From Callorhinchus milii (taxonomy: Eukaryota), in the NCBI RefSeq assembly GCF_018977255.1, contig NW_024704743.1:2420001-2484000 (forward strand): a DNA stretch of 64,000 nucleotides, given 5' to 3'. Shown here piece by piece: positions 27,125 through 60,855 of this stretch (positions within the stretch are counted from its first letter, which is position 1; every line of letters starts with the position of its first letter). The translations under genes and the position numbers were made by a program. The notes beneath the pieces were generated by a model. That model saw only the letters and a list, made by a program, of their open reading frames with translations, did no database searches and was not told where the DNA came from.

Positions 27125-27140
27125 GCTGCCATCTGTGGGC
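27125..27140 (-). promoter_or_regulatory. CTCF-like motif at the start of intron 9
   Basis: Minus strand GCCCACAGATGGCAGC; deviates at two of the more degenerate positions. Confidence 0.3.
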
Positions 27141-27199
27141 GGGCGGGCAGGGGGGCGGGGGGCTGGGAAAGAGAGAAAGATTACGTCTGTGCCACCTAC

Positions 27200-27272
27200 C
27201 ATTTATCCTTCTCATAAGTGCTTCCTCCTGCAGGCTGACACAGTACATTTGCTCATCCAAATCCTCGAGAAT
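27200..27272 (-). CDS. LMBR1: LMBR1 exon 9 (73 nt): ILEDLDEQMYCVSLQEEALMRRIN
   Basis: ctgtag|ATTCTCGAG...AAATG|gtaggt. Matches the ILEDLDEQ...EEAL motif. Confidence 0.96.
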
Positions 27273-29549
27273 CTACAGATTTAATCAACGGAAAACAATT
27301 CAGCAAAAGAAATGCGCAACAATAGCTGAAATTTGTAGGTGTTTTTACACTTAAATCCAGTTACGTTTTTAATACTGATATATAAAGGATTAGTATTCCA
27401 CATTTTCCTTCAACAAGCCAGTCGCTGGTATTTTACAATTGGGCACAGCAATCTAGGAAATCAGAGGAACAGTTTTCATCGCAGGAGGGAAAATGTACTG
27501 AGAAGTTTCAGGATAAAAGAAAAACCTGCATCGTGTTATATATCGCAAGGACTGTTTAAGTTCAGACAAAACATTGTTGTAGTGTGCTCTTTCTCTGAAC
27601 CAGTGCCTTCCGGACACCTGCAACAAAGAGTCTTTGGACTCTGCAAGGTTCTCTTCCCAAGTCATCAGTAAAGCATACTGTCTATAATCAGACTGGAAGA
27701 CAGACTTGCATTAGTTGATAGAGAGGGCAATGTGCTTGCTATGTCAGCATCCTAATATATAATTCATTGCTGCTTCACAGTAGGCAATTCAGTGTTGCTC
27801 AGCAAAGTGTCATAATTGTTCATCCTAGGTTACAAAGTTAATTATCTCATAACAGCTTCCCATCTGAAATGGCAGCCACACTGATGACATTGTAATAGGA
27901 TATCTACTCGAAAAGATGAAAATTAATTTCAATCATTCTGGAAGTCACCCAAGAAGTCGTTTTTTTTGGGGGGGGGGGGGTGGGGGGGGCTTTCAAATTT
28001 CCTAATTTCTCAAACATTAACAAGCCTTCCATTTTTTACGCTCCTTATTTAGGTCAATCACGCATAATTGTCAGATTTGAAGCATTTCAGTTAACTATTA
28101 AAAGTGACCGTGTTTTTTTTTTAGAAAACCAATATGTATTTAATGATCAACAGTCCCAAAGTACCATTGTGGCTTTAAAGTTGGAAACACACGCACATAG
28201 CAAGGTCTCTCAGCTCACACGGAATCAGATTCCTAGGAATATATTTCCCTAGGAATGGTATAATAATAATAATTCTTGCATTTGATACAGAGCCTTAGCA
28301 CATCTTCGAGATGTCTCAAAGCGCTTCACAGAATACGCTGTAGAGTGAATTGACTGTATATTGTGTGGGCAAAACGCGGCAGCCAATTGCGCACAGCAGC
28401 GTCCCATAAACAGTCGTGGATGAATGACCAAATTATTATTATTTTTTGAGAAGGGATTATTACCCTCGGAAAAAGGATAATATGATGGATCAAGAAGGTT
28501 CCAGTGGCACCCATGGAGATTGGGTTCCTCTTGAGTGAGGTGAGAACAAAAGAATAATAACGAACATTTTAAACGTTTAAAGATTGTCAGTGGAGTCAGT
28601 TTCCCCTTCTTGAGAGAGTAGGAGACCGGCTCTAAGGGTTTGTGCCGGGGAAGCAGAGTAGATACAAGCTGGAAGTTAAAAGCAACACATCAGGAGACTC
28701 CCTGGTGTGTCAGTGAGTTTATTTAGTGCGTACATACATGAACCACACAGATTTAAGGTCCCGGGTTCAATCTCCGGTCTGTGCTGTTGGAAGTTATTTT
28801 GGAAGCAAAATGGGATCATAGAATCATAGAATTGTACAGCACAGGAGGCCATTCGGCCCATCGTGTCTGTGCCGGCTGTTTGAAAAGAGCTTCCAAATCA
28901 ACCCCACTTCCCCGCTTTCTCCCCATAGCCCTGCAAACTTGTCTTCCCAAATGTACAAGATTATAGGGAATGTATGTGTAGAGAGAAGATGAGGAGTTCA
29001 GATGATACCATCCCACTACTCATTACCCCACTACTTGGGATTTTACTGATTATTTTCCATTTTGCAATATGTATTCCCTAATGGTTAGTTTTTCAACCCT
29101 ATAGTCTTTGTTCGTCTTCAAAAATAATAATAATAATTTGGTCACTCAATCCACGGCTGTTTGCGGGGACGCTGCTGTGTGCAATTGGCTGCCGCGTTCG
29201 GCCCACAAAATACAGCCAATTCACTTTACAGTGTATTCTGTGAAATGCTTTGAGACGTTTCGAAGACATGATAAGGCACTATATTAAATACAAAGATTAT
29301 TATTATTATTAATATAGTAGGGATATCACAGGGTGTAGGTATTGATCAATAGTGATCTCAGATCATCCACCAATTTCCTGCATATTTAGCCAATTTACAG
29401 AAGTCAGCTGGCTTTTTTTTTGGTCAGCTGGGTGTCTGATACCTGTGGAAACCCATGGCTGTGCTTAAAGAGTATCCAAACCAAACTTTCATTTCAGAAC
29501 GTCTCAGAGCCCTTGACACAACAGACAGGGAGATCCCAAGTTGTGTGTG

Positions 29550-29900
29550 TGGGGGGGGAGGAGGAGGAGGAAGGAAAGAGAGGAGCTAAGAAGGGGAGGA
29601 GAAAGGTGACCAAAAGCACAGTTGAAAAGATGGATCTTAAGATGGGTTTTGGAGAGAGTTGCGGAGAGATTCTACGATGGAGTTGAAGAGGTTGGACACA
29701 GAGCAGAGGAAAGCTCGCCCACCGCTGGTGAGATGGATTGGGTGGGGGATATGAGGCAGGTACAACAGGAGGTGGCAATGGATGGTAAGGGTGAGGCAAA
29801 GAGACAATGTGAAGGAAGGCATGTGAAAGAGAGGCCAAGAATCTTCAATATAATCCTCTGAGGAAAGAGGTGTGTAAGAGGATGCGGGTGGCAGATTTCT
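29550..29900 (-). mobile_element. L2 LINE 3' fragment, old
   Basis: SGGRAF-like peptide and similarity to other L2 ends. Confidence 0.7.
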
Positions 29901-30459
29901 GGATGGTTTGCAGTTCGTGTCGGAGCCCTGCGAGCTGGGCGGAGGGAGTAACTGAGTCTGGAGTTAATGGACTGAGGTTGCACATCAGCTCCACGAGTTG
30001 GGACTGAGCATCCAAGCAGGTCAATGCAGTCAACACCTATTGTGAGTAGAGTAGTGACTAGAGCAAAAGCAAACGAGCCTCAGCCCCGTCGACACTGAGC
30101 TACAGTCATCTGGGAATTGACGTCAAAGCAACCCAATGCGACCCGACCTGCATACAAAGGCTAGAGATAATAACTTAGAAAAACCTACAGGGAAATCACA
30201 AACCAGTGACCTGAGACACATCCCCACAGGAAGACGGCAGTGTGGGGCTACATCACAAACCGTGCATCAGTTTGGAAAGAGGGAAAGCAGGGAAGCAGCA
30301 TGCTGCGCGCTCAGATCCATCACTTAGAGATGCACCACATCCCCTTCCCGTTCGGAAAGGCACTCAGGGCTAATAAAGGCTGAACAGAAATCTCAACTCT
30401 ACGAGGGAACAAATGGAACGGCCGCTATTTTTCAGGCCTGAGCAAAAGCACTTTGAGGG

Positions 30460-30486
30460 GAGAGAGAGAGAGAGAGAGAGAGAGAG
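30460..30486. repeat. (GA)n microsatellite
   Basis: Directly visible. Confidence 0.95.
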
Positions 30487-31149
30487 GTAAAGCAGGGAAA
30501 TTGCTGGCAAGGCAACTAAAACAGGCAAAAGCGGTGGCAGCAATCTGAGCGATTAGCAACAGGGCAGGTCTATTAAAATTAATCAGGAATTCAGTGAATT
30601 TTATAGGCTTCTGCACCAATCAAAACCTGTGCAGGGGTTCGGTAGATTGTTTGCAGGTCTGAAAATATGACTATGACGAGGAAGCACTTTAAACAGAAAA
30701 TACTCGTGTAGACATTCCTTCCTCTTTAAAGAGGCCACGTAAAATCTCCTCTGAAGCGGTTCATTTTTGTAGCTTCGAATTTTAACCAGAAACTTACGGA
30801 AAACAAACTGTACTGACTCACCGCAGTGTCATTCTCACTATCCACAGCAGAATGGTTTAATCCACGACAGAACAAAGATCTGAACAATCTTAGCAATCTT
30901 GTGCTGTTGCACAGAACAAAGATCCATGATACCATTCGAAAATAGAAGAGTTTCTCCTTGTTTTCCTGGTCGATATTCCCTCCACATAAAACTGAACAGT
31001 AAACAGGTTGTGGATCGCGTGAATAACACAAGTAGATGAGGTTGTGCAACACAAATCATAGAATATTACGGCACAGAAGGAGGCCATCCTGTTGTTCCAC
31101 AAGTAATAGCAAAGATTGTTAATATTGTTCATTTTCGTGACCCACAACC

Positions 31150-31740
31150 TTACCTATTTTTGTACTTTTTTTTCTGGATAACTGGATTTATATGCTTTGG
31201 CATCAAAAAGTAGGGGTCCATCACCGCCCTGCCTTATAAGCAAGACAGTGCTATAGAGAATGATATGCGAATGGCAGTGAATGGCGCTATGATAGGAGTT
31301 TTCTGTATATGCATTTAACGCCAGACCCGGAGAGATGGTTAGGATGGTGGACATGTCCAAGAAACATCTCGACAGTGGGGTAAGTGTTTGGGAAGAACCG
31401 ATCAGATCACATGGTCCAAAGGGCTTTCTTACTACACATCTCTCTTGTGAGTTCATGAACAGAGGCGGGGATATGGATGTTCGAGACGGGAAGTGTGAAA
31501 GTTTCGCACCCCCTCGTCTCCCGGTTTGTTCTACGGATTCTTGGCATGCGAGAAGATGAAGCAAAGGGCAGAAAGACTGCTAACTGGAATTAAGCATCTG
31601 AGTTACGAGAGGCTGGGGATGTTTAGGGGAGATCTTAGTGAAGATATTTGAGATCCTAAAGGGTATAGATCAATATACCCTTAATAATACGTTCAGCACT
31701 GTCACCTTGTACAACAAGGAGGTATAGATTCGGTGTTAGG
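31150..31740 (+). mobile_element. Old CR1-type LINE fragment
   Basis: Degenerate similarity to CR1 ORF2 C-terminal regions (AGTTACGAGAGGCTGGGGATGTTT..GGAGATCTTAGTGAAG). Confidence 0.55.
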
Positions 31741-32022
31741 AAGATGGAAAGTAACAGCCAATGCAGACTGAATTATTTTACAAAACAAAATTCACTGCCC
31801 AGGAAAGCTCTGAAACCAGATTGTGTCAGCAAATTCAAGAGGGAATTAAGATAAGAGTCTTTTTGGAAAGAAATTGCTCAAGGGGTATGAGAAGTGGAAT
31901 AGAATGGGATTTTTTAAAAAAACTTTTGAACCAGGCAGAAGGACTGCAATATCCGGTACATTTTAATGGCCATTAAAAAAAACTCACCTCTGGTCACAAC
32001 AGCCAAAGTGCTGATAACTTAC

Positions 32023-32087
32023 CGTAGGTTTTACCAGCAACTGTCCCATCACTGTGAACATTGTGGAGAGTCCGACTGGTGTACACA
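32023..32087 (-). CDS. LMBR1: LMBR1 exon 8 (65 nt): LCTPVGLSTMFTVMGQLLVKPT
   Basis: ctctag|TGTGTACACC...CCTACG|gtaagt. Confidence 0.97.
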
Positions 32088-34597
32088 CTAGAGAGAGAAA
32101 AAAAAATCAAAGGCTATTATTATTTATATATATTTTTTGAAAAGATTATTACCCCCGGAAAAGCGATCAGAAGCAAATTGACTAACAACCGGGTTCCTAC
32201 TTGCTGCTGGGTAAACAGAGGCGCGCGTGTGTGTGTGTGTGTCTGGAGTAAGGAAACTTGCCCAATGTTTCGCCCCGACCTGCCCGGGAATCGAACCCGG
32301 GTCCCCTCGCTTGAGGAGGCTCTGAGTAAATCGGTTTGTACTGGTGTGGAGCTGGCTCAATTAAAACCTATTGCACTTTCCTTTTATACCCTTTCCTGCT
32401 ACCTCCTCCCATCTGAAGTCTTCTCTCCTGCATTCTTCTTCTTTATTATTATTAATAATATTATTATTATTCTCCCACAGCCTCAGAGTTCGCTTGCCTA
32501 AAATTCACTCTTCTTTATGGGTTTCCTTCAACTTTCTTCCCGCATTTCTTCTCAGAAGATTTAACAACGTTTTGGTCCCTAGACCCCAGATGTTCCTTCA
32601 GGTCTACTTTATTAATCAGCCACTGATCGTTAGTTAAAGCCAGATCTAGTGCTGTATTTTCCTGGTTAGTTTCCTACTTTTAGTAAGAAATCTTGCACAA
32701 TCTCAGCAAATGCTTTCACGAGCAGAGTGTCCTAAATGTGATGATTGATACGACAATTTTTTTTAAAAAAAAGCCCGATTCTTTGAAAATTCCTCAACCA
32801 CAACATCAAAAGATATTAATAGACCTGAAGGTGTACAAAATGGTACCCCAAAGCCCCAGGTCTGGGGAGCACAAAAAAATGCAGGAAACTCTAGGTAAAG
32901 AGGGAACACTCATAAAATTATTGCCAAGATACAAATGAATTAAGACAAATCCGATTCGCCAACAATTTACAATGATAGAGCACCTTTCACGACAGAAGGA
33001 CGTCGCAAAGAGCTTCACACAGTTGACTGGAACACAATTGAAACAACAACAAGAGATGGGTCTTGAGGCAGATTTTGAAGGCAGAGTGAGAGGGACAAGG
33101 CAGAGGCACTCAAGGTTGAAGTTCCAGAGAGAGACAGAGAGAGAGAGAGATACAGCAGGAGAGTTGCATTGCAGAAGGTCGCACGGGTAAAGTGGGAGCA
33201 ATTCAATCATTTAATCTCTAAAGAGGAAATGCACATCACATACAAATGAATGGACATTTCCGCTGAGGAATTCAAATTTTTGGGGGGGATCCTCTTGAAA
33301 ACTAAATAGCTCGGTTCAAGAAACCATTTTAAACGTAATCCAAAACGTCAACGTGAAACCAAGTAAGATTCTAACATGTCAGATTGCAATGTTTTTTTTG
33401 CTATAAAACACAGCCTTGTGAAATTAGAAGCTTCTTCCCTTGATCTAATTCACTCTGTTTAGTACTGTTTACATCTCACTCACTGACTACTTCACCAGCA
33501 TGATTCAAAGGCTCAACAGCAACAAGACCAGGGAACAGAGGCTGTATATGAACCACAGCATTAGAAAATACATTGAAACCTTTTTGTGGTTCAGAAATAT
33601 ATGTCTATGTGGAACATCTTCACAATAATTCACACCGAACAGAAATAATAAGTTTCGTATTTTTGTCCACAAAGTACACAGTGCATCCACTTTACAGTAT
33701 ATTCTGTGCAGCGCTTTGAGACGTTTCAATTTCAAGTGATGAGGCCCTATGTCAAATGCAAGGATTATTATTATTACATATTTATACAATTTTCTCCATA
33801 TAAAATCCTTCATTTTGCTTCTCTATTCAGACACACGTTCCAAGTTGTTAACAGTGCCTATGTGCGGGTGGGGGTGGGGGCTGAGTTATTTGAGCGATGT
33901 TTTTTTTTTAGGCTGACAACACTTTTTTGCTCCCTCAACCCCAGTCTGCATTCTGATCATCTTGGCCTTTACATGGAAGGAAGGAAACAGTCAACATCAG
34001 GTCAACTCATGTAATATTCATTTAAAATATTACATTATGAAGACTACTGGGATTTCGTCTGGCACTATACAGTAGATGGGTCGAAATGACTAAACATCAA
34101 TCCGATATCACGTGCGCATGAGCAGAGCTCTGATTATTACAGTCAATGAAGACCATCTTCCTGGGGAGTAAGCTTAGAAATGCTTATGATTTCTTTATTC
34201 CCATCGCATCCGGCAGTTTAAATTCTTCGCATGTACATTGACCTCTATCTACGCAGACCTGCACAACTGGATCTTGTTTCGACCGAGCCGCAGTCCGCTC
34301 CGGCGATCCAAAAACCGAACCCCCCACAAAAAATTGCTAAATCATTTTAAAAGAGCGAAGTAAAACCATCGTGATTGTGGAAAGTATTTTAGGACAGTCT
34401 TTGACTCCTCTGAAGGAGCGGGCAGTCCGAGTGCTGACAGGCCAGGCCAGGCCCAACCTGCAGTCAGAAGTGTAGTAATTCTGTCAACATTCACTGCAAT
34501 TTAGTGCACAGTCCACCCGCTGTCTTGTCAGCCGTGGGCTGTAAACCGGGAACAGGGAAGGTTTGCGCTCGGGTGTCTACGCTGTGGGGCAGACTGT

Positions 34598-34632
34598 CAG
34601 TGACCTCTGGTGGCTAACGAGTGAAACTGCAG
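34598..34632 (-). promoter_or_regulatory. Extended CTCF motif (upstream module plus core) in intron 7
   Basis: Minus strand CTGCAGTTTC-actcgt-TAGCCACCAGAGGTCACTG: TGCAG module, 6-nt spacer, then core. Sits in a CpG-rich patch. Confidence 0.65.
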
Positions 34633-35637
34633 CTCGACCGTGGTGAAGCGCCCGCTTGACGATTTGATCCGAGAGCTTCTGTCGGGATGTCGAGGCCCTC
34701 TCAAAGTCACCGGCGCGGTTTACCGCGAAACCCAGTGACTGTGGATTTGCAGGTGAACGTGGCGGCCCAATTGCCGCCGCAGTTGCCCCCCAACAACATC
34801 CACGAAGTGAACGGACAATTTTATCTGGAGGATTATTAGCCAAAGGCACCGAGAGTAACAAAGTCCCTGTGTTTGCCGACCGTGACAACGGGATTTTAAA
34901 TGTCCAGCTGAACAGGTGGAGGACAGCAGCTCTGAGGCATAGTGATAGAATGGCGAGAGGGAGGGAGGGAGGGAGGGAAGGAGGGATGAGTAAATGTTTC
35001 CAGGCTCCCTCCTGCCCACATGCACGTTCCCCAGATATCTAGGAAAGTAATAATAATAATAATAATAATCCTTGTATTTTTTTTTGGAGGGATTATTACC
35101 CCCGGAAAAGTGATCCGCCAATCAACGAACAACCGTGTTCCTACTGACTGCTGGTAAACAGAGGCGTGTGTGCGGAGTAAGGAAACTTGCCCAACGTTTC
35201 GCCCCGACCTGCCCGGGAATCAAACCCGGGTCCTCTTGTTTGAGAAGCGAGTGCTCTAACCTCAGTACTCTGCTCAAATGGTTATTGTTCATGTGCGAGT
35301 CTTGGAAACAAGTCTCACTCAACAGACCACCTCGACTGTAGAAGGTATCAGAGCTGAGCCTGACTTTTTCCACATCTTCTGCTACAATACAGACACCCCC
35401 CCACCCCAACCGCTTACACACACACACACACACGTACACTTGTCACACCCAGGGCTGCCTCTGCAAGTGAATATTAAACCTAAACGTTTCAGAATTCATG
35501 GCCAACATGAGCAACACCTGCCCTGTTTTCTCCGACATCCCCTCCCGTCACGTAGTGCACATCGCGTTCCGCACCTAAATTGTTGTCGCTTTACAATCAT
35601 GTCCAAAGCCTTCGCCGCAGACACAGAACATTGTGCA

Positions 35638-35656
35638 GCACCCCACCTAGTGGACC
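35638..35656 (-). promoter_or_regulatory. CTCF-like motif in intron 7
   Basis: Minus strand CCACTAGGTGGGGTGC: 11/11 of CCASYAGRKGG, then G instead of C. Confidence 0.4.
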
Positions 35657-35696
35657 ACACAAAGCACACACGGGAATGGAAAACGGCGGCGTGGAA

Positions 35697-36070
35697 ATAA
35701 TAATCTTTGCCTTTGATACAACGCCTTATCGTGTCTTCGAGTCGCCTCAAAGCGCTTCACAGAATATATTGTAAAGTGCAGTGACTGTGTATTTTGTGGG
35801 CGAAATGCGGCCGCCAATTGCGCACAGCAGCGTCCCCGCAAACAGGCGTGGGTTGAATGATCTAATTTTTTTTTGAGGGATTATTAATCCCGGAGAAGCG
35901 ATCCGCCAATCGATTTACAACCAGATTCCTACTGACTGCTGGTAAACAGAGGCGTGTGTTTGTGTGTGTGTAGTAAGGAAACTTGGCCAACTTTTCACCT
36001 GCCCGGGAATCAAACCGGTTCCTCGCGCTTGTGAGGCGAGTGCTCTAATCACTGAGCTACAGGACTCCAC
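35697..36070 (-). mobile_element. Dominant SINE, full-length
   Basis: Complete reverse-complement copy. Confidence 0.92.
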
Positions 36071-36453
36071 AGTTTAACAAGCAGTTCTATCAGTTGGATG
36101 TTAAACTGCTTGCTTGAAAAGAACAATTGGGTAAAAGATGGAGAAAAGGTACCTAGAATATGATTTATATCTAACTAATAAAGCGTAGTTAACTCACACT
36201 CAAATAACTTGTGCCCAGTGCAAGTGAAATTCAACTCACATCTCATAATTTTTCATTAAATATCCCGCTCATACCATATCTTAACAAAAGCAAAAATAAT
36301 GATAATTAATAGCAGATAGGTTGCCATGAAAGGTTTTTTCCCACAGTATTTGCTCTCAATATTGAAGCAGTCTCCATGAAATATGGCAAATATCTTATCA
36401 CGTATGGTATAAATTAGGTTACCTAATCTTTTAGCGATAGAAGAATTACTTAC

Positions 36454-36522
36454 AGAGAAGCAGTAAACCTCCCATCAAAGAAATGCAGGAATATAAATAA
36501 GGGAGATAAAATTCCCAAAGAT
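36454..36522 (-). CDS. LMBR1: LMBR1 exon 7 (69 nt): DLWEFYLPYLYSCISLMGGLLLL
   Basis: cccacag|ATCTTTGG...CTTCTCT|gtaagt. Phase is consistent with neighbouring exons. Confidence 0.97.
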
Positions 36523-36789
36523 CTGTGGGAAAAAACACAAGAAAATATGTTTTAGTAACTTTCAAGTTTTCCAAAGAAAAGTTGGTTTGATACAGTATTT
36601 ACTGCAGAAACCTATGCAATAACTTAGAAATACAATATAAATGTTGCACTTTAAGATTACAATGCTAAATCAAAAGCGTGTAATACCCAAATAGCTGCAA
36701 CTGAAAAGTTTTTGAACTGCACTTCACATACAGACAAGAGAAAAAAAAATGCAGGAATCGATTTGAATTGCAAAATAAAATCGCAATGA

Positions 36790-37170
36790 TAACAATAATA
36801 CTTGCATTTGATGCAGCGCCTTATCAGGTCTTCGAGGTGTCTCAAAGCGCTTCGCAGAAAATATTGTAAAGCAAATTGATTGTATATTTTGTGGGCGAAA
36901 CGCAGCAGCTAATTGCGCACAACAGTGTCTTACAAACAGTCGTGGATTGAGTGATCAAATTATTAGTATTTTTTTTAAAGGATTATTATCTCCGGAAAAA
37001 CGATTTGCCAATCGATTAACAACCGGGTTCCTACTCACTAGGTAAACAGGGGCGTGTGTGTGGAGAAAGGAAACTTGCCCAACGTTTCGCCCTGACCTGC
37101 CCGGGAATCAAACCCAGGTCCTCTCGCTTGCGAGGTGAGTGCTCTAACCCCTGAGCCACAGGACTCCACA
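36790..37170 (-). mobile_element. Dominant SINE, full-length
   Basis: Complete reverse-complement copy. Confidence 0.92.
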
Positions 37171-38508
37171 ATGCAAAGTCACCACAAGAGTAAAACAAAG
37201 CCTAGTATAAAGACTTTTCTTAGATCGTCAATACATTTGTGGTAATGAAGCCATCTTCAGCTTTGCAGCCAACTCGCCAACATCTTTCTCGGCTGGGTGT
37301 TGGAAACAAAGTTATTTGGGAACGAAAAAAAAGCCAATCCATGACATGAAAAGAAAGTTAGAGGATTAACTGGAAGATAGTTTGTTATATTTTTATTGGC
37401 TTTGGCCTTGTTATTGTCAATTTGGACAGGGTCCAAATGTAGACTTCATACACATTTATCATGTTATTTTATGCATAGCTTTATAGGGCAATTAAACCGC
37501 ACACCCTGCAATTCAGTGTTTAATACTGTCATACAAGCAGCTCAGCTAGATTTCAGCTTCTACACATTGATGTAAGAGAAATGCAAACTTTCAGAAATAG
37601 TGAGAATAATAATAATCCTTGCATTTTTATACAGCGCCTTATCACGCCATTGAGATGCCTCAAAGCGCTTCACAGAATATACTGTAAAGTAAACTGACGG
37701 GAGATTTTGAGGGCCAAACGCGGCAGCCAATTGCGCACAGCAGCGTCCCCACAAACAGCCGTGGTTTGACCGGATTGTTACTATTATTTTTCTTTTGGAA
37801 GGGAGAATGTCAGGAGGAAGCTTCAATCGCACGCGGTTTCAACTTTGCATCGTGAATTGTGAAAACTCTCCCGATCAGGATTAAATTGACGTAGTTTCTC
37901 TTTTTTTAAAAAAAAAAGCATTTACATAACAGCGCTAGCCACTGTGCAGAGCCGGACACGACTAACCATGTCCACCGAACATATGAGAAACACCACAACT
38001 CCATCTGTTATTGCTCTTAAACCTGGAGCCATTAACTGTTGAGCAGAAAGAATCTCAGCCACGGCAAACAACGACAACAATTTGCATTTACACAGCGCCC
38101 TTCACTGGGGAGGGGGTGGAGGTAAACATGGTCGAAGAGGAAGCTCTTCAGTCGTGATCTAAAAGAGGGGAAGGAGGGGGCAAGGCAGCGGGATTTGGGG
38201 AGGAAGTACCAAAGCTTCGTAATTCTGTGATTAATCATCTCTCCAGGTGCTGGAAGCAGATATTGTACTGGTCTCTCGCACCACTCCTTCCACAGATTGC
38301 ACGAGCAGAACATTCCTAGTTGAGGTATAAAGTCTTTCGCCCACAAAATATAGTCAATTCACTTTATAGTGCATCCTGTGAATCGCTTTGAGACGTCTCG
38401 AAGGTGTGCTAAGGGCCTATATCAAATGCAAGGATTATTATTATTATTATTAAAGCACATTTTTAAACCCTCAATCAAAAGTAGCCAAAGTATTTTCAAT
38501 CCACTTAC

Positions 38509-38635
38509 CGTATAAAGATTCCATACTGGCAGCATCGTTGTCAATCAGAGCTGAAGCCACCCAGACTATTCCCAATATAAGTAATGCGAGGAGAATAAGC
38601 ATCACAAAGGTCTCCAAAATGCGTGCCTTAATCCC
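38509..38635 (-). CDS. LMBR1: LMBR1 exon 6 (127 nt): GIKARILETFVMLILLALLILGIVWVASALIDNDAASMESLY
   Basis: tttag|GGGATT...TATACG|gtaagt. Peptide is recognisably LMBR1. Confidence 0.97.
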
Positions 38636-40194: not shown

Positions 40195-40516
40195 ATAATA
40201 AGGATAATATTTATATTTGATATAGCGCCTTATTATTGAGACGTCTCAATGCGCTTCACAGAATATACTGTAAGTGAATCGACTGAATCTTGTGGGCGAA
40301 ACAAAACGTTTGATATTTATTATTATTATTTTTTCGAAGCAATTATTACCCCCGGACAGCAATCCACCAATTGACTAACAACCTACTCACTGTTAGGTAA
40401 ACAGAGGCACGTGGAGTAAGAAAACTTGCCTAAGGTTCCCCACCCCCGGCTGGGAAACAAACACAGGTCCTCTCGCTTACGAGGCGAGCATGTTAACCAC
40501 TACGCTACAGGACTCT
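40195..40516 (-). mobile_element. Dominant SINE, internally deleted
   Basis: Tail and head present, middle missing. Confidence 0.85.
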
Positions 40517-45069: not shown

Positions 45070-45460
45070 GTTATAGCGCCTTATCACGTCTTTGAGACGT
45101 CTCAATGCACTTCACAGAATATATTGTAAAGTGAATTGACTGCATATTTTTGCGGCGAAACACAGAAGCCAATTGCGCACAGCAGCGTCCCACAAATAAT
45201 CGTGGATTGAGTGACCAATTTATTATTATTTTTTACCAAAATATTATTACGATTTATTTTATTATGATGTTTTAAAAAGAGATTATTATCCCGGAAAAGC
45301 TATCCCCCAATCGACGAACGACCAGGTTCCTATTTACTGCTGGTAAACAAAGGCGTGTGGAGTAAGGAAACTTGTCCAAAGTTTCGCCCCGACCGGGAAT
45401 CAAACCCAGGTCCTCTCTCTTGCGAGGCAAGCGCTGTAATCACCAAGCTGCAGGATCCAC
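45070..45460 (-). mobile_element. Dominant SINE, near full-length
   Basis: Reverse-complement copy. Confidence 0.9.
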
Positions 45461-48400: not shown

Positions 48401-48597
48401 AGCACGGCCGAAGAGGATTAAATAGAAGAATCTGCCGGAATGTTTGCTGGATTTAACTTTAGGATTCGGGAAGCATTTAAGTGGAGCTTTCGCCCCAGGA
48501 AAATAAAATGCACGAGTGAAAGCTACAGTACAGTCAGCATTGGGTGGCTGTGGAAGAAATGAGCTTGATGGCCATTCTATACATTATGTTCTTATTG

Positions 48598-48990
48598 CCG
48601 GCTTGGCTGAGTTGGTAGCACTCTCGCCTACAAGTCAGAAGGTTGCGGGTTCAAGCCCCGTGTTGGGAATTTAAACCTATATAGTCTAAGCCGACACTCC
48701 ATTGCAGTGCCGGAGGGGGGGGGGTTTGCATTGTCAGAGAGGTTGCCGTCTTTCGGATGAAATGCTAAACCACAGTACTATTCAAAGAGAAAAGGGGAAT
48801 TTATCCCTGTGTTTTGGCCAACAATCCCCCAAATAAAATTGGTGGGACACTGCCACGTACAAATCAACTATTGCGTTTCCCAACAAAACAAACACAGGCA
48901 CAACACCAATTACACCAGTACATCAGGACAGTACACCAGTACATCTGTGGAGTGCTTCGAGACGTCTACACATGTGATAAAGGAACAAGA
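48598..48990 (+). mobile_element. DeuSINE-like (SacSINE1/AmnSINE1-type) tRNA SINE
   Basis: GGCTGAGTTGGTAGCACTCTCGCC...GGTTCAAGCCC head, then GTCTTTCGGATGA...TGGCCAA central domain resembling the Deu domain. Confidence 0.7.
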
Positions 48991-49331
48991 TCAAATTTTA
49001 AAATCATCAGCTGTTTTGTTTCCCTTTTGATAGACCTGAAGCTCGATGGAATGCAGTCCCAAAACTGATCCAGAATATCCAGAAGCAGAGGACATACGAG
49101 GAGGATTTTTGGGAAATCCCCAGAGTGCAAGACATTATGCACCATGATCCCCAAATCGGATGAAAATTTGCCTGCATAAAAGCACAAGGGATTTCACTCT
49201 GTGAATATTCAGGCAGTCTGTGACCATCAACATCAAATCATTCATCTAAATGCTAAACTTTGCAGGGGTCGAACTTGTGTGGCCATTGTGCCTCCTGTAC
49301 ATGTGGATTGGTGGCTCCTGAGACTCTACGG

Positions 49332-49870
49332 ATAATAATAATAATAATCCTTGCATTTCATACAGCACCTTATCACGTCTCAAAGCGCTTCACAAAAATT
49401 TACCACCAGAACTTGGGATTTACATAGCGCCCTCCACGCCGGACGGTGTCTCAGAGCTTCACAGTAATGGATCCCGGGGCTGAGCCAAGGGGAGGGGGGG
49501 GGGAGTGACCAAAGGTGCGGTCGAAAAGAAAGGTCTTCAGTCGAGACCTGAAAATAGGAAGAGAGGGAGCGAGGCGAAGGGAGTGAAGAAGGGAGTTCCA
49601 GAGCCTCGGGGCATAGTGGCTGAAGGCACGGCCGCCGAGGGTGGAGCGGAGGACTCGGGGACAAGGAGGAGGCCAGACCCAGTGGAACGATTTACTGTAA
49701 AGTGGATTGACTGTGTGGTTTATGGGTGAAACGCAGCAGCCAATTGCACACAGCAGCGTCCCCACAAACAATCGAGGATTGAGTGACCAAATTATTATTA
49801 TCATTATAATAATTATTAGTTTTTTAAGGGATTATTGCCCCTGGAAAACGATCTACCAATCGTCTAACGA
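49332..49870 (-). mobile_element. Dominant SINE with a nested L2 3' fragment (49404-49689; TSD ATTTAC)
   Basis: ATTTAC at 49398-49403 and 49690-49695 flanks an L2 end (GGRAFSHYAPRLWNSL...FRSRLKTFLF on the minus strand). Confidence 0.88.
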
Positions 49871-50047
49871 CCATTGATGTTGACAACTATCTATAAAAGA
49901 AAGAAAAGGATCAATGGCTAAGGAGAAGTACAGATCGAGGCGGTTAAATGGTTTAAGGGCATAGTGGCTCTTGGGGACTTTTGTAAATGTCAGAACGAGT
50001 TCCTGGTCAGCAAGACAGATACTGCCGGGTGTCTAAAACAATTATAC

Positions 50048-50067
50048 TATATATATATATATATATA
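50048..50067. repeat. (TA)n microsatellite
   Basis: Directly visible. Confidence 0.95.
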
Positions 50068-51549
50068 GAACCATTGGAGATAAGGTCAGGTAGACATTCT
50101 GTTTTACTCAGTCTATCGTTTAGGACCCAGAGAATTAATCGTTTGTAATCTTGCGGACAGTCATTTTTATTGATAACAGCATTCAATTAAAACAGTTGAT
50201 TTTCAGTAATACAGTATACTGCATTCTGATCACATTTAATTGCAGTCTGGAGGCCTGGATACATCTCAATATTCAAAACTACAGGATTCATTTTGAAAAC
50301 TATTATATTTTGATTCCATGTTAAACCATATCAATGTCGAGGCGATCTAGAAGAGAATTATAATAATAATAATACACAGTATGTCACATCTGGCATAAAA
50401 TGAGTTTTGGAAACGCCAGCTGAAATGGAGTATGCTTCACCACTGCAGGCAGATCGATATCTCCAAATCACTAGAGCCAACCAGTTCAGATACTGTGATA
50501 GCTTTATTGCTGTAACAGTCGTTTTTGTACACTAACACAAAACCATATTCATTATTTACCTGTGCTCTTTCTGACATTGAGAATCACATTGAATCTCACC
50601 TGTGACGACAGATCAAGACAATGTTTCTCGCGATTCAATCCAGCCGGCAGGTAATTGTGCACGAGTCAATAAGTCAGAACTCAAGACCGCCGGTCACTGA
50701 TGGGAGTAATTGGAGGGTAAGGGAATGGCATTGCCAGTTAGGAGGCGATTAATACGAGTCATGCAAAGATACCTGAGGGGGTTTGATAGGAAACTGTATG
50801 CGACTCGTGTTCTTATGACTTGGGTGAATATACGATTTCTAAAGATAAAAACTTGTGTGGGCTTTACTGTAGTAGAAACTATGAAAGAGTGAGCCAATCA
50901 ACAATCCCTCCACAGGGAGATCAGCCTGGAGGGGTGAACCTGTACACAGCGCAGTTTTCACACTCCAATTTGAAAAAAATCACTAACGAGTTTGTATAAG
51001 ATCTTGGAAATCTTATTGGAAGTTTATCGGCGCCACGGGACCCGAGCTTTGCAGTTTATAGGCCTTCGGCTCTTTTTGAATTGATACAAATGTTGAGATG
51101 CAGTTACGCTGCTGTTGGATTTCTTCCTTGAACACAGAGGTCAAGAAAAAGCTGGAGAAACTTTTGTATTATTGCTTTTGTTAACCTTTATGAGTAACCA
51201 GGCTACACTTCCGACAGACAAGCCAGACTTTCTCATCGTGTACACTTATGGGTATCATTAATGGAACTTTGAACTCTACCAACTAAACAACGAAAGGCAG
51301 GTTTTCCTCTCCACAGGTTTAAGGTTGGTCACTGCTGACACAGGGCCATCCTTTACTGAGGATTCACAATCTGCTGTCACCTTGCCATTCAGCTTTTCTA
51401 ATCACCTGATCCAGGGTGGATCAGATCGAATCGCTAAGCCAAGGACCAGAATGTTTACCAAACTTGTGGAGATGGATGGGCAACATCATACGAATACAAT
51501 CAAAAGCACACAAAACGTTCAGACAAAGACTTCAGATCATTCAGATCAT

Positions 51550-51895
51550 GGAGTCCTGTAGCCTATCGATTAGAGCACTCGCCTCGCAAGCGAGAGGACC
51601 CGGACAGGGCAAAACCGTAAGCAAGTTTCCTTACTCCACGCGCCTCTGTTTACCCAGTTGCTGGAGGATCGCTTTCCGGGGGTAATAATCCCTCCAAAAT
51701 AAAAATAGTACTAATTTGGTCACTCAAACCACCACTGTTTGTGGGGACACTGCTGTGCGCAATTGGCTGCCACATTTTGCCCACAAAATACAGTCAATTC
51801 ACTTTACAGTCTATTCTGTGAAGCGCTTTGAGACGACGCGAGATGTGATAAGGCGCCATTTCAAATCCAAGGATTATTATATAGATTATTATTAT
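51550..51895 (+). mobile_element. Dominant SINE flanking the ZRS
   Basis: GGAGTCCTGTAGC head through (ATT)n tail. Confidence 0.9.
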
Positions 51896-52224
51896 AATCA
51901 AAATCATACAAAAAGTTCAGGCAAAGACTTCTGAACATTTGCACTCACTCCTTGCACATTTCACGTATTCGCGGATTTCAGTGGAGCCGAAGGTCTCGTA
52001 AAACCGAGCGGAATTGAGTGATTTTAAACTCAAAACGGTATCATATTTAAAAAGAAGTAACTTTCCAGAAAGTTCTCCAAAACATTTTAAACACCGAAAT
52101 CTTTTCCAAAATGAACGTCGAGCCCGAATTTCAACAAGAGCTCCTTTTCCTGAGAGAAAAGCTCCCTCCTCCAGCCTTTCAATATGTTTAGCATCATCTC
52201 CCTTCACTGGGCAAATGAACAGGA

Positions 52225-52810
52225 ATAATATGCACGTGCTACTAACACAAAGCAGTGCTTCCGTAACAAGTCTTTTCCAACAATTTATGGATCATCAACG
52301 GGGGGAAAAAAAAACAAGTTTAAAAAAAATGAAAGAATGCAATGAAACAAACTGACAAAGCAGACTTCTACTTCCTACCGATTTCTGAAGTCTCTTTAAT
52401 ATGGGCCTGATACAAATTAACTTCAATGGGCACTACAAAAAAAAAGTCATCTGGTCGTAAAATACAGTACATGGTCAGTTTTATGTAAGTTTGCCAAAAG
52501 GGATGCAAACCAGGACAATCTCAAACTGCGACACAGGATTGAAGTGTATTAAAAATCTTTTTTTCTCATCCATTGTGCTGTCTTTTTGCTCAGGTTTATA
52601 GACATTTTGAGCACCAATATTGGCCTCTTCACTTCCATCTGGTGGATCTAATTAATTAGTCAAGGAAATCACTGCAATTTTCATACTGCTCTCTTTATTA
52701 ATAGACTTTTTTAAGCGTTTCAGTTAAGACTCTCAAACTCACAGCTGCTACATTTGAGTTCAATGTTTTGTAATGTCTGGATAATTGGGATAATTGGTTA
52801 GGATGCTGAT
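52225..52810. promoter_or_regulatory. ZRS / MFCS1 Sonic hedgehog limb-fin enhancer ortholog in LMBR1 intron 5
   Basis: Lies between exons 5 and 6. It contains blocks I recognise from tetrapod ZRS: TTCCAACAATTTATGGATCATCA, AATGAAAGAATGCAATGAAA, GGCCTGATACAAATTA, AGTCATCTGGTC.TAAAATACAGTAC, TTTTATGTAAGTTTGCCAAAAGGGA, AAACCAGGACAAT, TTTATAGACATT, CTAATTAATT, GGATAATTGGTTAGGATG. The region is repeat-free. Confidence 0.96.
52630..52645 (-). promoter_or_regulatory. Weak CTCF-like motif inside the ZRS
   Basis: Minus strand CCACCAGATGGAAGTG: 11/11 of CCASYAGRKGG, then mismatch at the following C. Confidence 0.45.
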
Positions 52811-54169
52811 GTCATTTGACTGTTTTAGATGAACATGTGGATAATATCACTCTCAGATTATTTTCACAGGTTTGTATCAGCAAAATGTCATGACACAGAC
52901 ACTCGTTTCTGTATGTGGTTAGGCTTCAGATTTTATTTTGGATTTCTCACTAGGCGGATAACTGCTGCACTCTGTCAATACTTTTAAAACAAGAAATTTT
53001 AATATATCATTTATTCGGGAGAGAGTCTGCAGGACGGGTCACCGTTAAGAGTCAAGAACAAGAATGAAAGGCCTAATCCTTACACCGTGCCAACAACCGA
53101 CTCAATCAGGATCGCAATGTTCCTCACTTTCATTCCGTCTCCGAGGTGTCTTTAACACCCGACCAAATAAAAACATCAAAGCTTTACTTGAACGGCAAAG
53201 GATTTTTTGAAATTTCAGAAGCATTGACTATGAAGTAGCGTAGAGTCTACATACAGGACAGCTCAACACCTCAGTTCATTTTAAAAGCCGTCTGTTGAAA
53301 TACAACCTGACGTCTGGTTTATACAATCATAACTTCTGCCTGATCACAAACCAAGACAGACGAGGAGAGTCCAGGTCACACAAGATCCAGATGACATTTT
53401 AAATTCTAACCTCAAATAGCGTTCGGCTTGTACAACAGTAATTATGACCCCAATATAAGCTCCTACTGTGCAAATAGAGGAAGAAAAAGCAGAGCTGAAC
53501 AGTTACAAGAGTTACTCATTACTGTGACACAAATCTTATAACACAGTCAAATAGCTTTTTTTTTTAAAAAAAACTTTTTGCAGGCATCATTTCTATGGTG
53601 TGCGTTTTTAAAAAAAACACGTCATTAATAACGGCAGTCATAGACGTTAAGCCCAATTAAAGAACAAGGAACGATCCACCAACAGTCCATTTATAATCTG
53701 TCCTCAAGTGAGCAAGGAGAAAACTAGGATAGTTTTAAAATCACTTAACTCCTCCCCTCAACGTTTTGACCTTATATATTTTTCTACACCAGCATATCTG
53801 ATTTTGTTTCGTCTTTTCTTCGGAAGTGAAGAGATAATATTGCTTAAGATCATTTAATTTATCCCCAGGTTCTCCCCACCCTACACCACTGCTCTTGTTG
53901 AAAGGAAAGATCGAAGACCTCAATGAAAATGTGCCCGATTGTAAAATAGTCCAGGGAGGTTTACATTCATTTTAAAAGCCGTTTTAAAGGGGTCCAGGGA
54001 ATTAAATATTTTGTTTTGCCCACAAAACATGGTCAATTAACTTTACAGAAAACCCTGGGATGCTCTTTTGAGACGTCTCGCAGACGTGATGAGGCGCTAT
54101 ATCAAATGCAAAGATTATTATTCTCATTTTCCATCCCTTTTGGATATATGGGAGGGAGGAAAATACCAA

Positions 54170-54500
54170 AGGTGCAGTCAGAGAGGAACATCTTGAGCCA
54201 GTGAGCAGCAAGTTGACACAGTTAAGCCTGGACATGATGAATGCATGGATTCGGGCTTTGGCAGCCCAAGACTAGAGGTAGGAATGTTACGCAGTTGGAG
54301 GAAAGCTGAGTAGTTCAGAGCACGGAAGTGAGAGTCACACAAGACACCATGGTTTCCCACTGGCCCTGCGAGGTGGAGAGGGCATCCATGAAGATAGACG
54401 CTGTCAGCGCTTGAGGAGAGTAGGCGCTGATGGGAGTCAAGCGGTGGTGGGTGGGGGGTTCTGTCTTGTTGATGTTCAACTGGAGAAAGCTAACAACTAT
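54170..54500 (-). mobile_element. L2 LINE fragment
   Basis: GTCTTGTTGATGTTCAACTGGAGAAAG (FLQLNINKT on the minus strand). Confidence 0.7.
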
Positions 54501-55826
54501 CGAGGATTAAGGTTGGAGGCAGATATAACTGTGTGTAAACATACAAGAAAATATGAATGCACCTAGTAAATAAGAAATGGGGAATTAATTTGCCCACATT
54601 AATAGTCAAGTAAGCTACTTATTCCTCTGTCTAAAAACCCATCCCGATACACGTCCACAAGTCAAACATGTAATACAAACAGGGGACTCGATGTCCTTAT
54701 ATACGATGACTTAACTCAGCCTACAACTTTTAAAGGGCAACCAAATTCATAACGCAAGGCTAAAAAAAAAAACTTTGTTAATAAGCTATATGTATGCATG
54801 AGATATTAAATTCTTCCTTTTGTCAGCAAGGTTAATTAAACGTCCGTGCACTCAGTAATGTAGGTCATTCCTTCCAATCCCCTGGTAGTGTTTTGAAACA
54901 TGGACATTGAAAAAGCAGGAAGGGAGCGAGATTTAGTGCGTGTGGCTCCCCAATACCAACTGTGCTTCCCCATCAGAAGTGTGCAACAAGCATATTCAAC
55001 ATTAGAAAACCGAGAATCTTACCCTTCAGTAACAGATACAGCTATTTAATCCATTGGTTTCCTCAACTAACACTGGGACTGAAGGCTACAAAACAAAACA
55101 AGTGAGCTACTTAGGGAAAGAATTAAAGAAAACCTCTCGTTATAACGCGGTGACGTCACGTTCATATAACGCGTTAGGGAACAAAGACTAGCCATACAAT
55201 GCTATAAACCAAATACGAGGGAATCCTGAAGTGAAGACTACCAAAAGGCATCTGAATAAAAACAGGATTGTAATCCATAGAATCATGGGCAGTAACAGCA
55301 GCCCCTGCCGGGAAGCGAAGAGCAACAAGCACACTGACCAACAACAACAACAGCTTACATTTGTATAGCGCCTTTCACGTCAGGAGGAGCTGCCCTCAAC
55401 TGAATAGCCAACTTCTGACCAGAACTCAAAATATCTATTCATCCAATTTACAGAGAAGAGTTCATCAGTTTTGGTGAAGCGAAAAATAGCACAACCCTCG
55501 AACGTTCAAGTAACACCCATATACATCTCTCCATCTCCAAACCATTTTTTTTTTACTCAATTTTTTCTGGGGGATATCAAAACAGAGGGTTCCTTTTCGA
55601 TACGACTTTCTCCAGTTAAAAGTTACATTGCTTCGAATTAAAACTTTTAAAGAGTTAAGCACATTGAAAGCTAAACAGTAAAAATAAATGTTTTAGCACC
55701 AAATGGCTAGAGATCACATTTGATCACTTGACATGACTAGACATAGAGGGGAGAGCTTTACTTTTTAATAAAGATTGCCATGATTTGCATCTGTTTTTAC
55801 AAAAATCATCCAAAATACATATGTAC

Positions 55827-55930
55827 CTTTTTTGATCCGGCAAATCCTTCTGACTCCAGGAAAAAATAGGCGAAAGGCATCAGCACAAATAATGAGAGGT
55901 TGGAGAAGAGGGATACAAGATTCCATAGTC
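55827..55930 (-). CDS. LMBR1: LMBR1 exon 5 (104 nt): GLWNLVSLFSNLSLFVLMPFAYFFLESEGFAGSKK
   Basis: ttttag|GACTATGG...AAAAAG|gtacat. Contains the LMBR1 signature MPFAYFFLESEGFAG. Confidence 0.97.
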
Positions 55931-58842
55931 CTAAAATGATAAATTCCAAAATCAGAAAACAAAATGCATAAATGGAAGCAAAAATAGCACAAATTGAACC
56001 TGTGACATATTTTTACATTAAAGTAATCTCCAAATTAACCTCCACAAATGGACTAAACTTTCTTTTCAAAGTGATGCAAGCGAACAAGCGAGATTAGAAA
56101 ACTTGACAATAAACGAAAATATAATGAAAGAATAAAACAAAGTGAAATTCAACAGCATCTCACATATTTACTTCATTTGTTAAAGCAATAAAATGCTTCT
56201 TAGTATTAAGGGTGTCCAATTCTGTACAGAAGAGGAATAACATTTCAAGAGATTAACCCAATGCTAATTTCAAGGAACACAAACACATTCTTTAGAAGCA
56301 AGCTTAAGCACAACAACTTAGAGTTGACAATTTGTGCCCCTTTCAGACATATGTTTAACTAGCACACCACATATTCCTGGCAATGATACTCTGGCCTACC
56401 GCATATAAAGGAAATTCCACGGTCACGCTTTATAGTATTTACGTGTAGGATCATTCCCATTCACTTAGTTTGAAAAAATACTGCTGTGAAATTCCTACTT
56501 GCCCATAAATGGGTAAGAGTGGAATTGAGCCAGAGAAAGACACATAATTGGTCTCAGAAGTCATTCCAAATAGTCTTGCTGCTGGAAATTATATAAATAT
56601 AAATAATAATAATAGTGAGTGACCACATTATATTTATTTTGAAGGAATTATTATGCCCGGAAAAGCGATCCACCAACTAACATTGACTAAAAACTGTGTT
56701 CCTAGTTACTGCTAGGTAAGCAGAGGCGTGTGTGTGGAGTAAAGAAACATGGCCAACGTTTCGCCCTGTCTGGGAATCAAACTCAGGTCCTCTCGCTTGC
56801 CAGGCGAGAGCTCTAACCACTAAAGGACTCCACATATAAGGGCAATACCTCCACTAACGTAGCAGCCCCCCAACACGACCGGTTGGGAGAATGTCTCGAG
56901 GTGCTGGGACATCACTCAAAACAATCTTGTTCTGCTTATTAAGCACAACTGTTGTAAAGGGGAAAAAATGGTGCTCTTGAAATAAAATAGTTATCAGCGT
57001 TTGAAAACACCAGGACCAGTAATGGCCTTTTTGGGGGTCACTCAGCCAGGTGAAAGTCTTGGCATCACCAGCTGTATCGAGAGAGCTCAGATACATACTG
57101 CAGTCAGGTTTCGAGTTGCTGTTTTAAGAATGCTCAATCTCTCTGCAGGTAGAGACACCTCAACAAACACAGGAAGGGGCAAGTCACAAAGGGCAGAAGT
57201 GGAATTGATCATTGAAAAGGACTACACTGGCTCAGTTTTACCATCTGCTCCAGCACAACTTCAACTTGCAACTAAACACAGAGGTCTTTTTGCAGAATGT
57301 TTCGAATTACCCATTGCAGTAACTGAGCCTCCTCAAAAACACCCCGTTTTAGCTCAAGTGAAATTGGCCAAACCTGTATCGCGTTTGCTAAGATTTAGAA
57401 TAATGTCAGATAATCTTTGTTTTATTTCCCTTAAGAAGATTACATTCTAAACCAAGAAAATCTCACAGGAAAACTGCAATAACACTGCCGTCCGTCACTG
57501 GGCTGTACAGAACTCATCTGCAGAACATTACTCAAAAGCTTTGTCCTGCTTATAAAGCATTGACCCATGTGAGGGAAAAAAAATTAAATCCTTAATACAG
57601 CTACTGTGGAGATTACATAAATGTTATACCATTTAGTTCCATTTGCTAGTTCAAGTAATTCAGTGAAATTCATGATATAAATCAGCATGTTTGGACATAA
57701 AATGACTGGGCTTATAACAACTCATATTTATATAGTCCCCTTCATGTAAAAACGTCCCAAAAAGCTTGATATATGTTGCAGTGCAAACCAGGCAGAAGAA
57801 CAGCAATTCAAAGATGTTAACCTAAGGTACAGTTAGATAAAATGGCTTTTTAGATTTTTGATTGCAAGTAGAAAGCGCAGGGCAAAATGGTTCTGTGAGC
57901 AAATTCCAGAGAATAGCGACCTGCTGGCTGAGAGCTCAGCTACAGAGATGGCGAAGAGAATGTGGAATACGCAATGAACCAGAAGGGCTCAAGCGTACGG
58001 TGTGGCAATGACAACGAAGGTTTGTGGAGTCCTGGAGCGTATTGGTTTGAGTTCTCACAGGCGAGAGGACCCGGGTTCAATTCCCGGGCAGGACAAAATT
58101 TTAGAGAAGTTTCCTTACTCCACACACCTCAGTGCTATATCAAATGCAACGATTATTATTATTATTTGCTATGACAACAACTTGCATTATACAGTACACA
58201 CTTTACAGTGTATTCTGTGAAGCGCTTTGAGACATCTCAAAGACGTGATCAGGCGATTATTAATGTTACTATTAAAACAAAATTAATTATTAACAAGTCC
58301 TTGTGATACTTACAGGCAACATGATTTTATTTTAAGCTGTGGTGTAACTTACAACTAAATGTTCTCTGGTTGCCCCTTCACTGAATCACAACCTGCAATT
58401 TACAAGTATCTGGACTCTTGTATGTTTTGAATAAATCTCTAAGATGCTGGCAATAACTATTAAATTTTCCTTGTGCAAACATAATTATGATAATAATAAT
58501 CCTTGCATTTGATACAGCGCCTTATCACGTCTTCGAGACGTCTCAAAGCGCTTCACAGAATACACTGTAAAGTGTACACTGTATATTTTGTGGGCAAAAC
58601 ACAGCTGCCAATTGTGCCCAGCAGCATAAAATGTACTACTTTAGTCATATTTTATAGACAAATATAAAATCTCATTGTCGGATTTTCACAACAGCAAAAG
58701 ATATAGCATTTACGTATCAGGGGTAATGGGGGTATCGATCAACTAAAACTGTCAAGTTAAAGGGAAGAAGAGACGAGCCATCTGCAGCTTTTGGCACGCA
58801 ATTTATCAGCCATCAGAAAAGCTGGCTGGAGGTATTGTACCC

Positions 58843-58861
58843 TAGCGCCACCTGCCGGTGT
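58843..58861 (-). promoter_or_regulatory. Strong CTCF core motif in intron 4
   Basis: Minus strand acaCCGGCAGGTGGCGCTAg versus consensus CCASYAGRKGGCRSY; one tolerated deviation. Lies in non-repetitive sequence. Confidence 0.7.
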
Positions 58862-60715: not shown

Positions 60716-60855
60716 CATGAATTAATGAACCATTCAACCACTGGATGTAGTAGTTTTGTGGGAAAGAAAGCAGGATCTCATTGCTGATGATTGAAAACGG
60801 CAACAGCAGAACTGCACCAGTGGACACAGCCAATGTAAATGTGCACAAATACATC
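60716..60855 (-). CDS. LMBR1: LMBR1 exon 4 (140 nt): MYLCTFTLAVSTGAVLLLPFSIISNEILLSFPQNYYIQWLNGSLIH
   Basis: ttttcag|G...CATG|gttggt. Contains the highly conserved LLLPFSIISNEILLSFPQNYYIQWLNGSLIHG segment. Confidence 0.97.

Follow-up and report, generated by a model that had tools for sequence, protein, structure and literature searches.

In the introns of its LMBR1 gene, the chimaera Callorhinchus milii has a few strong CTCF motifs, clustered and mixed in orientation, which with moderate confidence we take to bind CTCF, and which would bound a compact SHH domain at its LMBR1 end. The DNA analyzed (hereafter the window) is 64,000 nucleotides long and corresponds to C2:2420001-2484000 in the 992-Mb genome; LMBR1 is on its minus strand, with exons 3-17 inside the window and exons 1-2 past the high end, as found by tblastn with LMBR1 proteins. 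Coordinates without a prefix are window positions, those with the prefix C2 are positions on the contig that holds the window. Motifs on the minus strand face SHH. The predicted cluster is likely to mark the edge of the chromatin domain holding the fin/limb enhancer known as the regulatory sequence of the zone of polarizing activity (ZRS), much as in mammals. The elements discussed are:

34598..34616 (core) and 34623..34631 (upstream module), minus strand: strongest CTCF motif of the window, LMBR1 intron 7, SHH-facing; 20.6 bits, p 7e-8
58843..58861, minus strand: strong CTCF core motif without upstream module, intron 4, SHH-facing; 18.8 bits, p 2.7e-7; single copy
60181..60189 (upstream module) and 60196..60214 (core), plus strand: strong CTCF motif, intron 4, facing away from SHH; 17.2 bits, p 7.7e-7; single copy
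52630..52648, minus strand: CTCF-like 19-mer within the 5' subdomain of the ZRS, intron 5; 15.2 bits, p 2.4e-6
27124..27142, minus strand: weak CTCF-like match, intron 9; 10.9 bits, background level, fails the consensus scan
35638..35656, minus strand: weak CTCF-like match, intron 7; 8.3 bits, background by matrix, 1 mismatch by consensus
52190..52830 (approximate ends), minus strand: core of the ZRS limb/fin enhancer, LMBR1 intron 5, delimited by eye by comparison with chicken, human, dog and frog

Both strands were scanned with a reconstruction of the JASPAR MA0139.1 counts, and a consensus pattern, allowing at most 1 mismatch, served as matrix-free check. The matrix found 20 matches of at least 8 bits in the window, the four highest being, in order, 34598, 58843, 60196 and 52630, followed by 27219 (minus strand, coding exon 9, 14.5 bits) and 391 (plus strand, 12.6 bits). 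The core motif read by zinc fingers (ZF) 3-7 is present at 34598, 58843 and 60196 at p < 1e-6, and at 52630 at 2.4e-6; it does not rise above background at 27124 and 35638, which rank 8th and 19th of the 20 matches. The consensus scan returned four minus-strand sites (58846, 52633, 35641 and 34601) and one plus-strand site (60199), 27124 dropping out. The four top motifs exceed chance. Four motifs reach 15 bits in the window, versus a mean of 0.71 in dinucleotide shuffles made in 1-kb blocks, where this number was attained in 1 of 200 trials; the three motifs reaching 17 bits were matched in none of the 200. Column-permuted matrices equalled the window in 8 of 300 cases at the lower cut-off (4 motifs at 15 bits or more), and in 2 of 300 at the higher (3 motifs at 17 bits or more). 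Control DNA (40 stretches of 10 kb, 400 kb overall) contains 2 motifs of at least 15 bits. Lowering the cut-off to 8 bits gives 15 matches per 64 kb of control DNA, hence 27124 and 35638 are ordinary, background-level matches, likely due to chance.

A second motif, read by ZF9-11 and found in 13-15% of CTCF sites, has been tied to high affinity and enhancer blocking (PMC12885311), and constructs place this upstream module 14 nt ahead of the 19-mer (bioRxiv 2023.12.05.569896). The module was searched at an offset of 14 or 15 nt (5-6 base spacing), with at most 2 mismatches over 9 positions. It accompanies three of the six LMBR1 core motifs of at least 12 bits, namely 34598 (1 mismatch), 60196 (2) and C2:2489172 (none). 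Given a background rate of 0.014, the binomial P is 6e-5, a value made optimistic by the post hoc setting of the 2-mismatch limit; at each of 8 control offset pairs the count was 0 of 6. Sites combining core and module are rare, being 4 among the 55 core motifs found over all 1.06 Mb scanned, and three of these four reside in LMBR1 introns. The first five module letters (TGCAA; background rate 0.006) are present at two of the four strongest window motifs, and at 60196 they sit at the 15-nt offset, a spacing identical to that of the intron-7 site 34598. No module was found at 58843, 52630, 27124 and 35638. The upstream modules are the best sequence evidence that the predicted cluster, including the away-facing 60196, is real. 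The composite site C2:2489172 (minus strand) lies in intron 2, about 5.2 kb beyond the high end of the window, and joins a 12.2-bit SHH-facing core to a perfect module.

An earlier note on this DNA, made from the letters alone, had listed five CTCF-like motifs, all on the minus strand, and had interpreted them as co-oriented anchors pointing toward SHH. The five sequences are where they had been placed, and on that strand; tblastn and splice sites bear out their assignment to intron 4 (58843), intron 5 (52630), intron 7 (35638 and 34598) and intron 9 (27124). The note had also called 58843, second in rank here, strong, and had given 34598 an upstream module. The assertion that no comparably good motif occurs on the plus strand does not hold, as 60196, in intron 4, outranks three of the five; an equally strong plus-strand motif was what the note itself had said would speak against co-orientation. 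Of the five, just two (34598 and 58843) convince as sites facing SHH, and the interpretation survives in part, corrected from co-oriented anchors to a mixed boundary cluster.

The orientation test was run on the LMBR1 gene body, bounded by exon 3 and the last exon, the coding-exon matches 27219 and C2:2244544 being left out of all orientation counts. Minus-strand motifs are 12 of 18 at 8 bits (P = 0.12), 6 of 9 at 10 bits (P = 0.25), and 3 of 4 at both 12.5 and 15 bits (P = 0.31). The strand bias is not significant. It is very improbable, and largely refuted already by 60196, that the five motifs are co-oriented anchors, each equivalent to a mammalian site (i4, ZRS, i9) and conserved since bony and cartilaginous fishes split. 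Such an equivalence may appeal to 58843, which is found in intron 4 as are mouse i4 and the human LSC sites, to the prevalence of the minus strand among consensus matches (4 of 5), and to the 10 of 12 motifs of at least 8 bits that are on the minus strand within the span of the earlier note (P = 0.019). Yet the ends of this span are themselves chosen sites, and the mouse i4 region is poorly conserved even in comparison with human (PMC8052326). A site-by-site match to the mouse i9 and ZRS sites fails, because 27124, like 35638, is at background level, and 52630 coincides with an E-box of the enhancer.

Reference sequences for the by-eye comparison of the ZRS were taken from the supplement of PMC12263586. 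E-boxes are found at 52641, 52453 and 52238. The 52630 motif overlaps E-box 1 (52641-52636) and a GGAAG core, right after two TAATTA motifs, and by eye this stretch is homologous to the E-box 1 stretch of the 5' subdomain, as located by the primer and coordinate tables of the same paper. The chicken counterpart of the 19-mer scores -1.3; those of human, dog and frog, again by eye, have no CC, a G replacing the near-invariant second C. In mouse, the long-range region of the ZRS has the ectopic CTCF site at its centromeric (3') edge (bioRxiv 10.1101/528877). At the 3' edge of the chimaera ZRS no match exceeds 4 bits, the best scoring 3.9. Compared by position only, 52630 is not the mouse site, since it falls on E-box 1, within the 5' subdomain, away from the centromeric edge. 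Most likely, the match is E-box 1 itself, retained for enhancer function. CTCF docking on the enhancer, at a genuine site specific to chimaera or to cartilaginous fishes laid over E-box 1, seems improbable: the score of 52630, its SHH-facing orientation and the CC absent in tetrapods would fit, but 52630 has neither an upstream module nor the near-invariant C that follows the GG run, the context is A/T-rich and CpG-poor, and a CTCF-like string is likely from the E-box and GGAAG constraints alone. Where mouse i5 and human LSC2 lie, in the portion of intron 5 nearest exon 6, no strong motif was found, the best match (10.6 bits) being inside a repeat. Four [C/T]AATTA motifs, described in mouse as required for long-range action (PMC12267059), are kept in the ZRS despite a distance to SHH of just 214 kb.

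SHH lies on the low-coordinate side of the window, as the earlier note had assumed. A hedgehog gene resides on the same contig, on the minus strand, at C2:2244302-2258555; its exon 1 matches SHH with 151 bits, IHH with 137 and DHH with 106, whereas exon 2 does not separate SHH from its paralogues. A second LMBR1-family gene, on contig C27, adjoins another hedgehog, and a DHH/LMBR1L pairing is expected for such a paralogous locus (PMC3364491). The identity of SHH is based on exon 1 scores and on linkage, the C27 pair fitting DHH/LMBR1L. The distance between SHH and ZRS is 214 kb, and the 464-kb region contains 5 N. On the side opposite SHH, 53 kb from the ZRS, is a homeobox exon, which we take to be MNX1 from sequence and synteny only; comparison with solved structures did not name it as such. 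RNF32, NOM1 and RBM33 were not located among the 83 of 200 long open reading frames scanned. Elsewhere in the genome, a fourth hedgehog-like locus (C725:5646-7798, on a small contig) has three TGA stops within its first match, and is possibly a duplicate, a pseudogene or an assembly leftover.

On the scale of the domain, motifs were expected on the plus strand up to 20 kb 3' of SHH, and on the minus strand from the start of SHH to the start of LMBR1, edges chosen from the mouse papers. Agreement was 8 of 9 at 14 bits (P = 0.020), 8 of 11 at 12.5 bits (P = 0.113), 6 of 7 at 15 bits (P = 0.062), 4 of 5 at 17 bits (P = 0.188) and 33 of 58 at 8 bits (P = 0.179). Among non-coding motifs of at least 14 bits, the three found within 20 kb 3' of SHH all face LMBR1, and five of the six between SHH and the start of LMBR1 face SHH. 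The orientation is no more than suggestive of the mammalian convergent layout. The minus-strand motifs have SHH on the side they face, with opposite-facing plus-strand motifs beside the gene. These plus-strand motifs, 5-14 kb 3' of SHH, are C2:2230839 (16.1 bits), C2:2237962 (15.0 bits) and C2:2239245 (18.8 bits), with one minus-strand motif of 13.0 bits in their midst; the group may be the expected partner anchor of the LMBR1 sites. The strongest motif of the region (C2:2339756, minus strand, 20.8 bits) sits midway in the gene desert of SHH, and is a possible sub-domain anchor.

At the other end, 58843 and 60196 form a divergent pair, 1335 bases apart, beyond which the motifs stay mixed toward the LMBR1 promoter (C2:2489172, minus; C2:2499185, plus). 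By analogy with loop extrusion in mammals, the SHH-facing sites around the ZRS and the plus-strand sites 3' of SHH would hold a loop between SHH and LMBR1, and the divergent intron-4 pair, along with the mixed promoter-side sites, would separate this domain from the MNX1 side. Motif strength and orientation, upstream modules, gene order and distances are direct readings of the DNA.

Conservation and repeats were monitored at the main sites. The possibility that the motifs are transposon-borne was rejected: in a repeat scan of 1.06 Mb none of 13 sites tested, the strong 34598, 58843 and 60196 included, overlaps a repeat, and the degenerate short interspersed nuclear element (SINE) near 34598 starts about 90-100 bases away. 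In a genome search, and given the caveats of that tool, 34598, 58843 and 60196 are single-copy sites. Of 20 sequencing runs listed, none carried a library label, and no ChIP or ATAC run was identified among them. Contigs of four of these runs, three from relatives (X2, organism B; X6, organism C; X10, unlabelled) and one from the same species (X11), were aligned at 80%; the small word shares (0.05-0.07) of organisms B, C and X10 were not taken as evidence. Over 33850-34730, X11 fills all 30 bins and leaves the 34598 motif unchanged; aligned pieces of X2 and X6 are at 33985-34180 and 34430-34508, that of X10 at 34037-34180. These intron-7 islands (about 87% and 92%, respectively) are non-coding, align in relatives while their flanks do not, and are candidate regulatory elements. 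The alignment of 58700-60260 was swamped by a SINE at 59727-59935, matched by tens of thousands of contigs, and holes in it, such as the missing cover at 58843, are meaningless, as the cover of X11 is patchy too; over 60131-60236, the depth of X2, X6 and X10 is compatible with an island whose end falls at 60201-60215, a weak hint of alignable sequence near the plus-strand site 60196 in the three relatives.

Several observations weigh against a boundary cluster at LMBR1. The matrix is a reconstruction of the JASPAR counts, and the 2-mismatch limit for modules was fixed only after 60196 had been seen. C2:2489172 is an SHH-facing composite beyond 60196, so that the orientation switch is not clean; control DNA is itself skewed at 8 bits (63 plus versus 31 minus), and the P values of the domain test span 0.020-0.188 over 11 thresholds, uncorrected and with self-chosen edges. 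At 80%, no aligned piece covers the 34598 motif in any of the three relatives, even though the X2 and X6 contigs run on beyond 34508, by 752 and 122 bases. Since a 43-base piece with 7 differences was reported, good conservation of the site might have been visible; the evidence leans toward a putative site that is lineage-specific or has diverged, its loss being unproven. The surrounding 664 kb contain 18 motifs of at least 15 bits, or 1.7 per 64 kb, and the window has therefore only about twice the strong motifs of its neighbourhood. Removal of such sites in mouse at most halves Shh, with no limb defect (PMC8052326), and over 214 kb a loop would be needed less. Alternatively, the strong motifs would be ordinary CTCF sites, or unbound matches, of a gene-rich chromosome end, without any special role for SHH, their order reflecting chance and selection of the best matches. 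The 18 neighbourhood motifs are on both strands and also outside the SHH domain, none of the within-gene strand tests attains P < 0.1, the intron-7 site is unaligned in relatives, and human and mouse CTCF peaks overlap by only about 25% (PMC8052326). This explanation is nonetheless rather unlikely, as chance leaves unexplained why three of the four composite sites in 1.06 Mb are in LMBR1 introns, and why the plus-strand group occupies the position of mouse CTCF1, just 3' of SHH.

If the cluster at LMBR1 is a boundary, its layout was probably inherited, while single sites were gained and lost. Turnover and a mild effect are to be expected, since CTCF sites differ between human and mouse (PMC8052326) and mouse deletions cause no limb defect. 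A broader proposal concerns the CTCF grammar of the SHH domain, made up of inward-facing anchors 3' of the gene, sites around the ZRS that face SHH, and a divergent switch of insulator type that separates the ZRS from MNX1. This grammar would go back to the ancestor of jawed vertebrates, would predate the megabase range, being in place already at an SHH-ZRS distance of 214 kb, and would persist by site turnover; we infer this ancestry from one genome, and hold it as a tentative idea. According to it, the boundary would have been pulled into intron 4 because the distance from the ZRS to MNX1 is a quarter of that to SHH.

Among the papers listed in searches of a literature collection with few subscription papers, none dealt with CTCF at this locus in a cartilaginous fish. 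Convergent CTCF domains are known in skate, though the main text of the skate paper makes no mention of ZRS or Lmbr1 (PMC10115646); what is new are motif-predicted sites at this locus. As the general principle is known from skate and mammals, the gain is locus-specific, and is drawn from motifs. If the sites are bound, the boundary by the best-studied long-range enhancer would have been kept throughout the jawed-vertebrate tree as a layout rather than as fixed sequences. The chimaera would then offer a compact 214-kb natural version of the locus, suited to the question of what CTCF is there for, the SHH loop or the shielding of MNX1.

Many LMBR1 exons are 100% identical to Callorhinchus milii proteins in tblastn; exon ends were taken from splice sites. 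The exons flanking the introns of interest are:

60716..60855, minus strand: LMBR1 exon 4, 140 bases (tblastn and splice sites)
55827..55930, minus strand: LMBR1 exon 5, 104 bases (tblastn and splice sites)
36454..36522, minus strand: LMBR1 exon 7 (tblastn and splice sites)
32023..32087, minus strand: LMBR1 exon 8 (tblastn and splice sites)
27200..27272, minus strand: LMBR1 exon 9, containing the coding CTCF-matrix match 27219 (minus strand, 14.5 bits), which was set aside

Intron 10 hosts an 18-base minisatellite of about 48 copies (21062-21890), which accounts for a 689-residue open frame with a match to a repeat-family Pfam entry only. Matches to tRNA-Ala (Rfam, ARAGORN) at 17033-17104, 25479-25550, 26289-26361 and 37093-37164 are heads of a high-copy SINE; Rfam detected nothing else in the window.

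The known system closest to the chimaera locus is the preformed loop between mouse Shh and ZRS, where the CTCF sites i4, i5 and i9 in Lmbr1 face Shh (Paliou et al., bioRxiv 10.1101/528877). As in mouse, SHH-facing motifs are found on both sides of the ZRS, one of them in intron 4, and convergent motifs beside SHH. In contrast, the low-side site of the chimaera is in intron 7, strong motifs like i5 and i9 are missing, the ZRS match lies on E-box 1 instead of the centromeric edge, and a divergent motif appears already in intron 4. The distance is 214 kb in chimaera versus almost 1 Mb in mouse, and the chimaera sites are motif predictions. The human sites LSC1-7, involved in acheiropodia (Ushiki et al., PMC8052326), similarly include convergent sites near exon 4 and divergent ones on the promoter side; the likeness is one of position, as three convergent bound sites surround exon 4 in human, whereas intron 4 of the chimaera has one convergent and one divergent motif. 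With the mouse CTCF1-5 layout of the Shh topologically associating domain (TAD; Williamson et al., bioRxiv 10.1101/609941) the chimaera shares a putative anchor just 3' of Shh and, near the 5' end of Lmbr1, a site oriented toward the Mnx1 domain. CTCF2, 5' of Shh, has no strong chimaera counterpart in the scan, the best plus-strand matches scoring 11.8-11.9 bits, and the strongest away-facing motif is intronic in chimaera. In mouse and human alike, sites toward the Lmbr1 promoter are divergent. The order of predicted motifs by mouse Lmbr1 is minus, minus, minus, plus (PMC5862518, supplement 10), and ZRS activity leaks over this border to Mnx1 (PMC12404194). Divergent CTCF clusters are a common but not obligatory signature of boundaries (PMC9279147), and the divergent motif cluster of the chimaera resembles them. 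In skate, TAD borders carry inward-facing CTCF motifs (PMC10115646), an orientation code of cartilaginous fishes that the chimaera locus would share.

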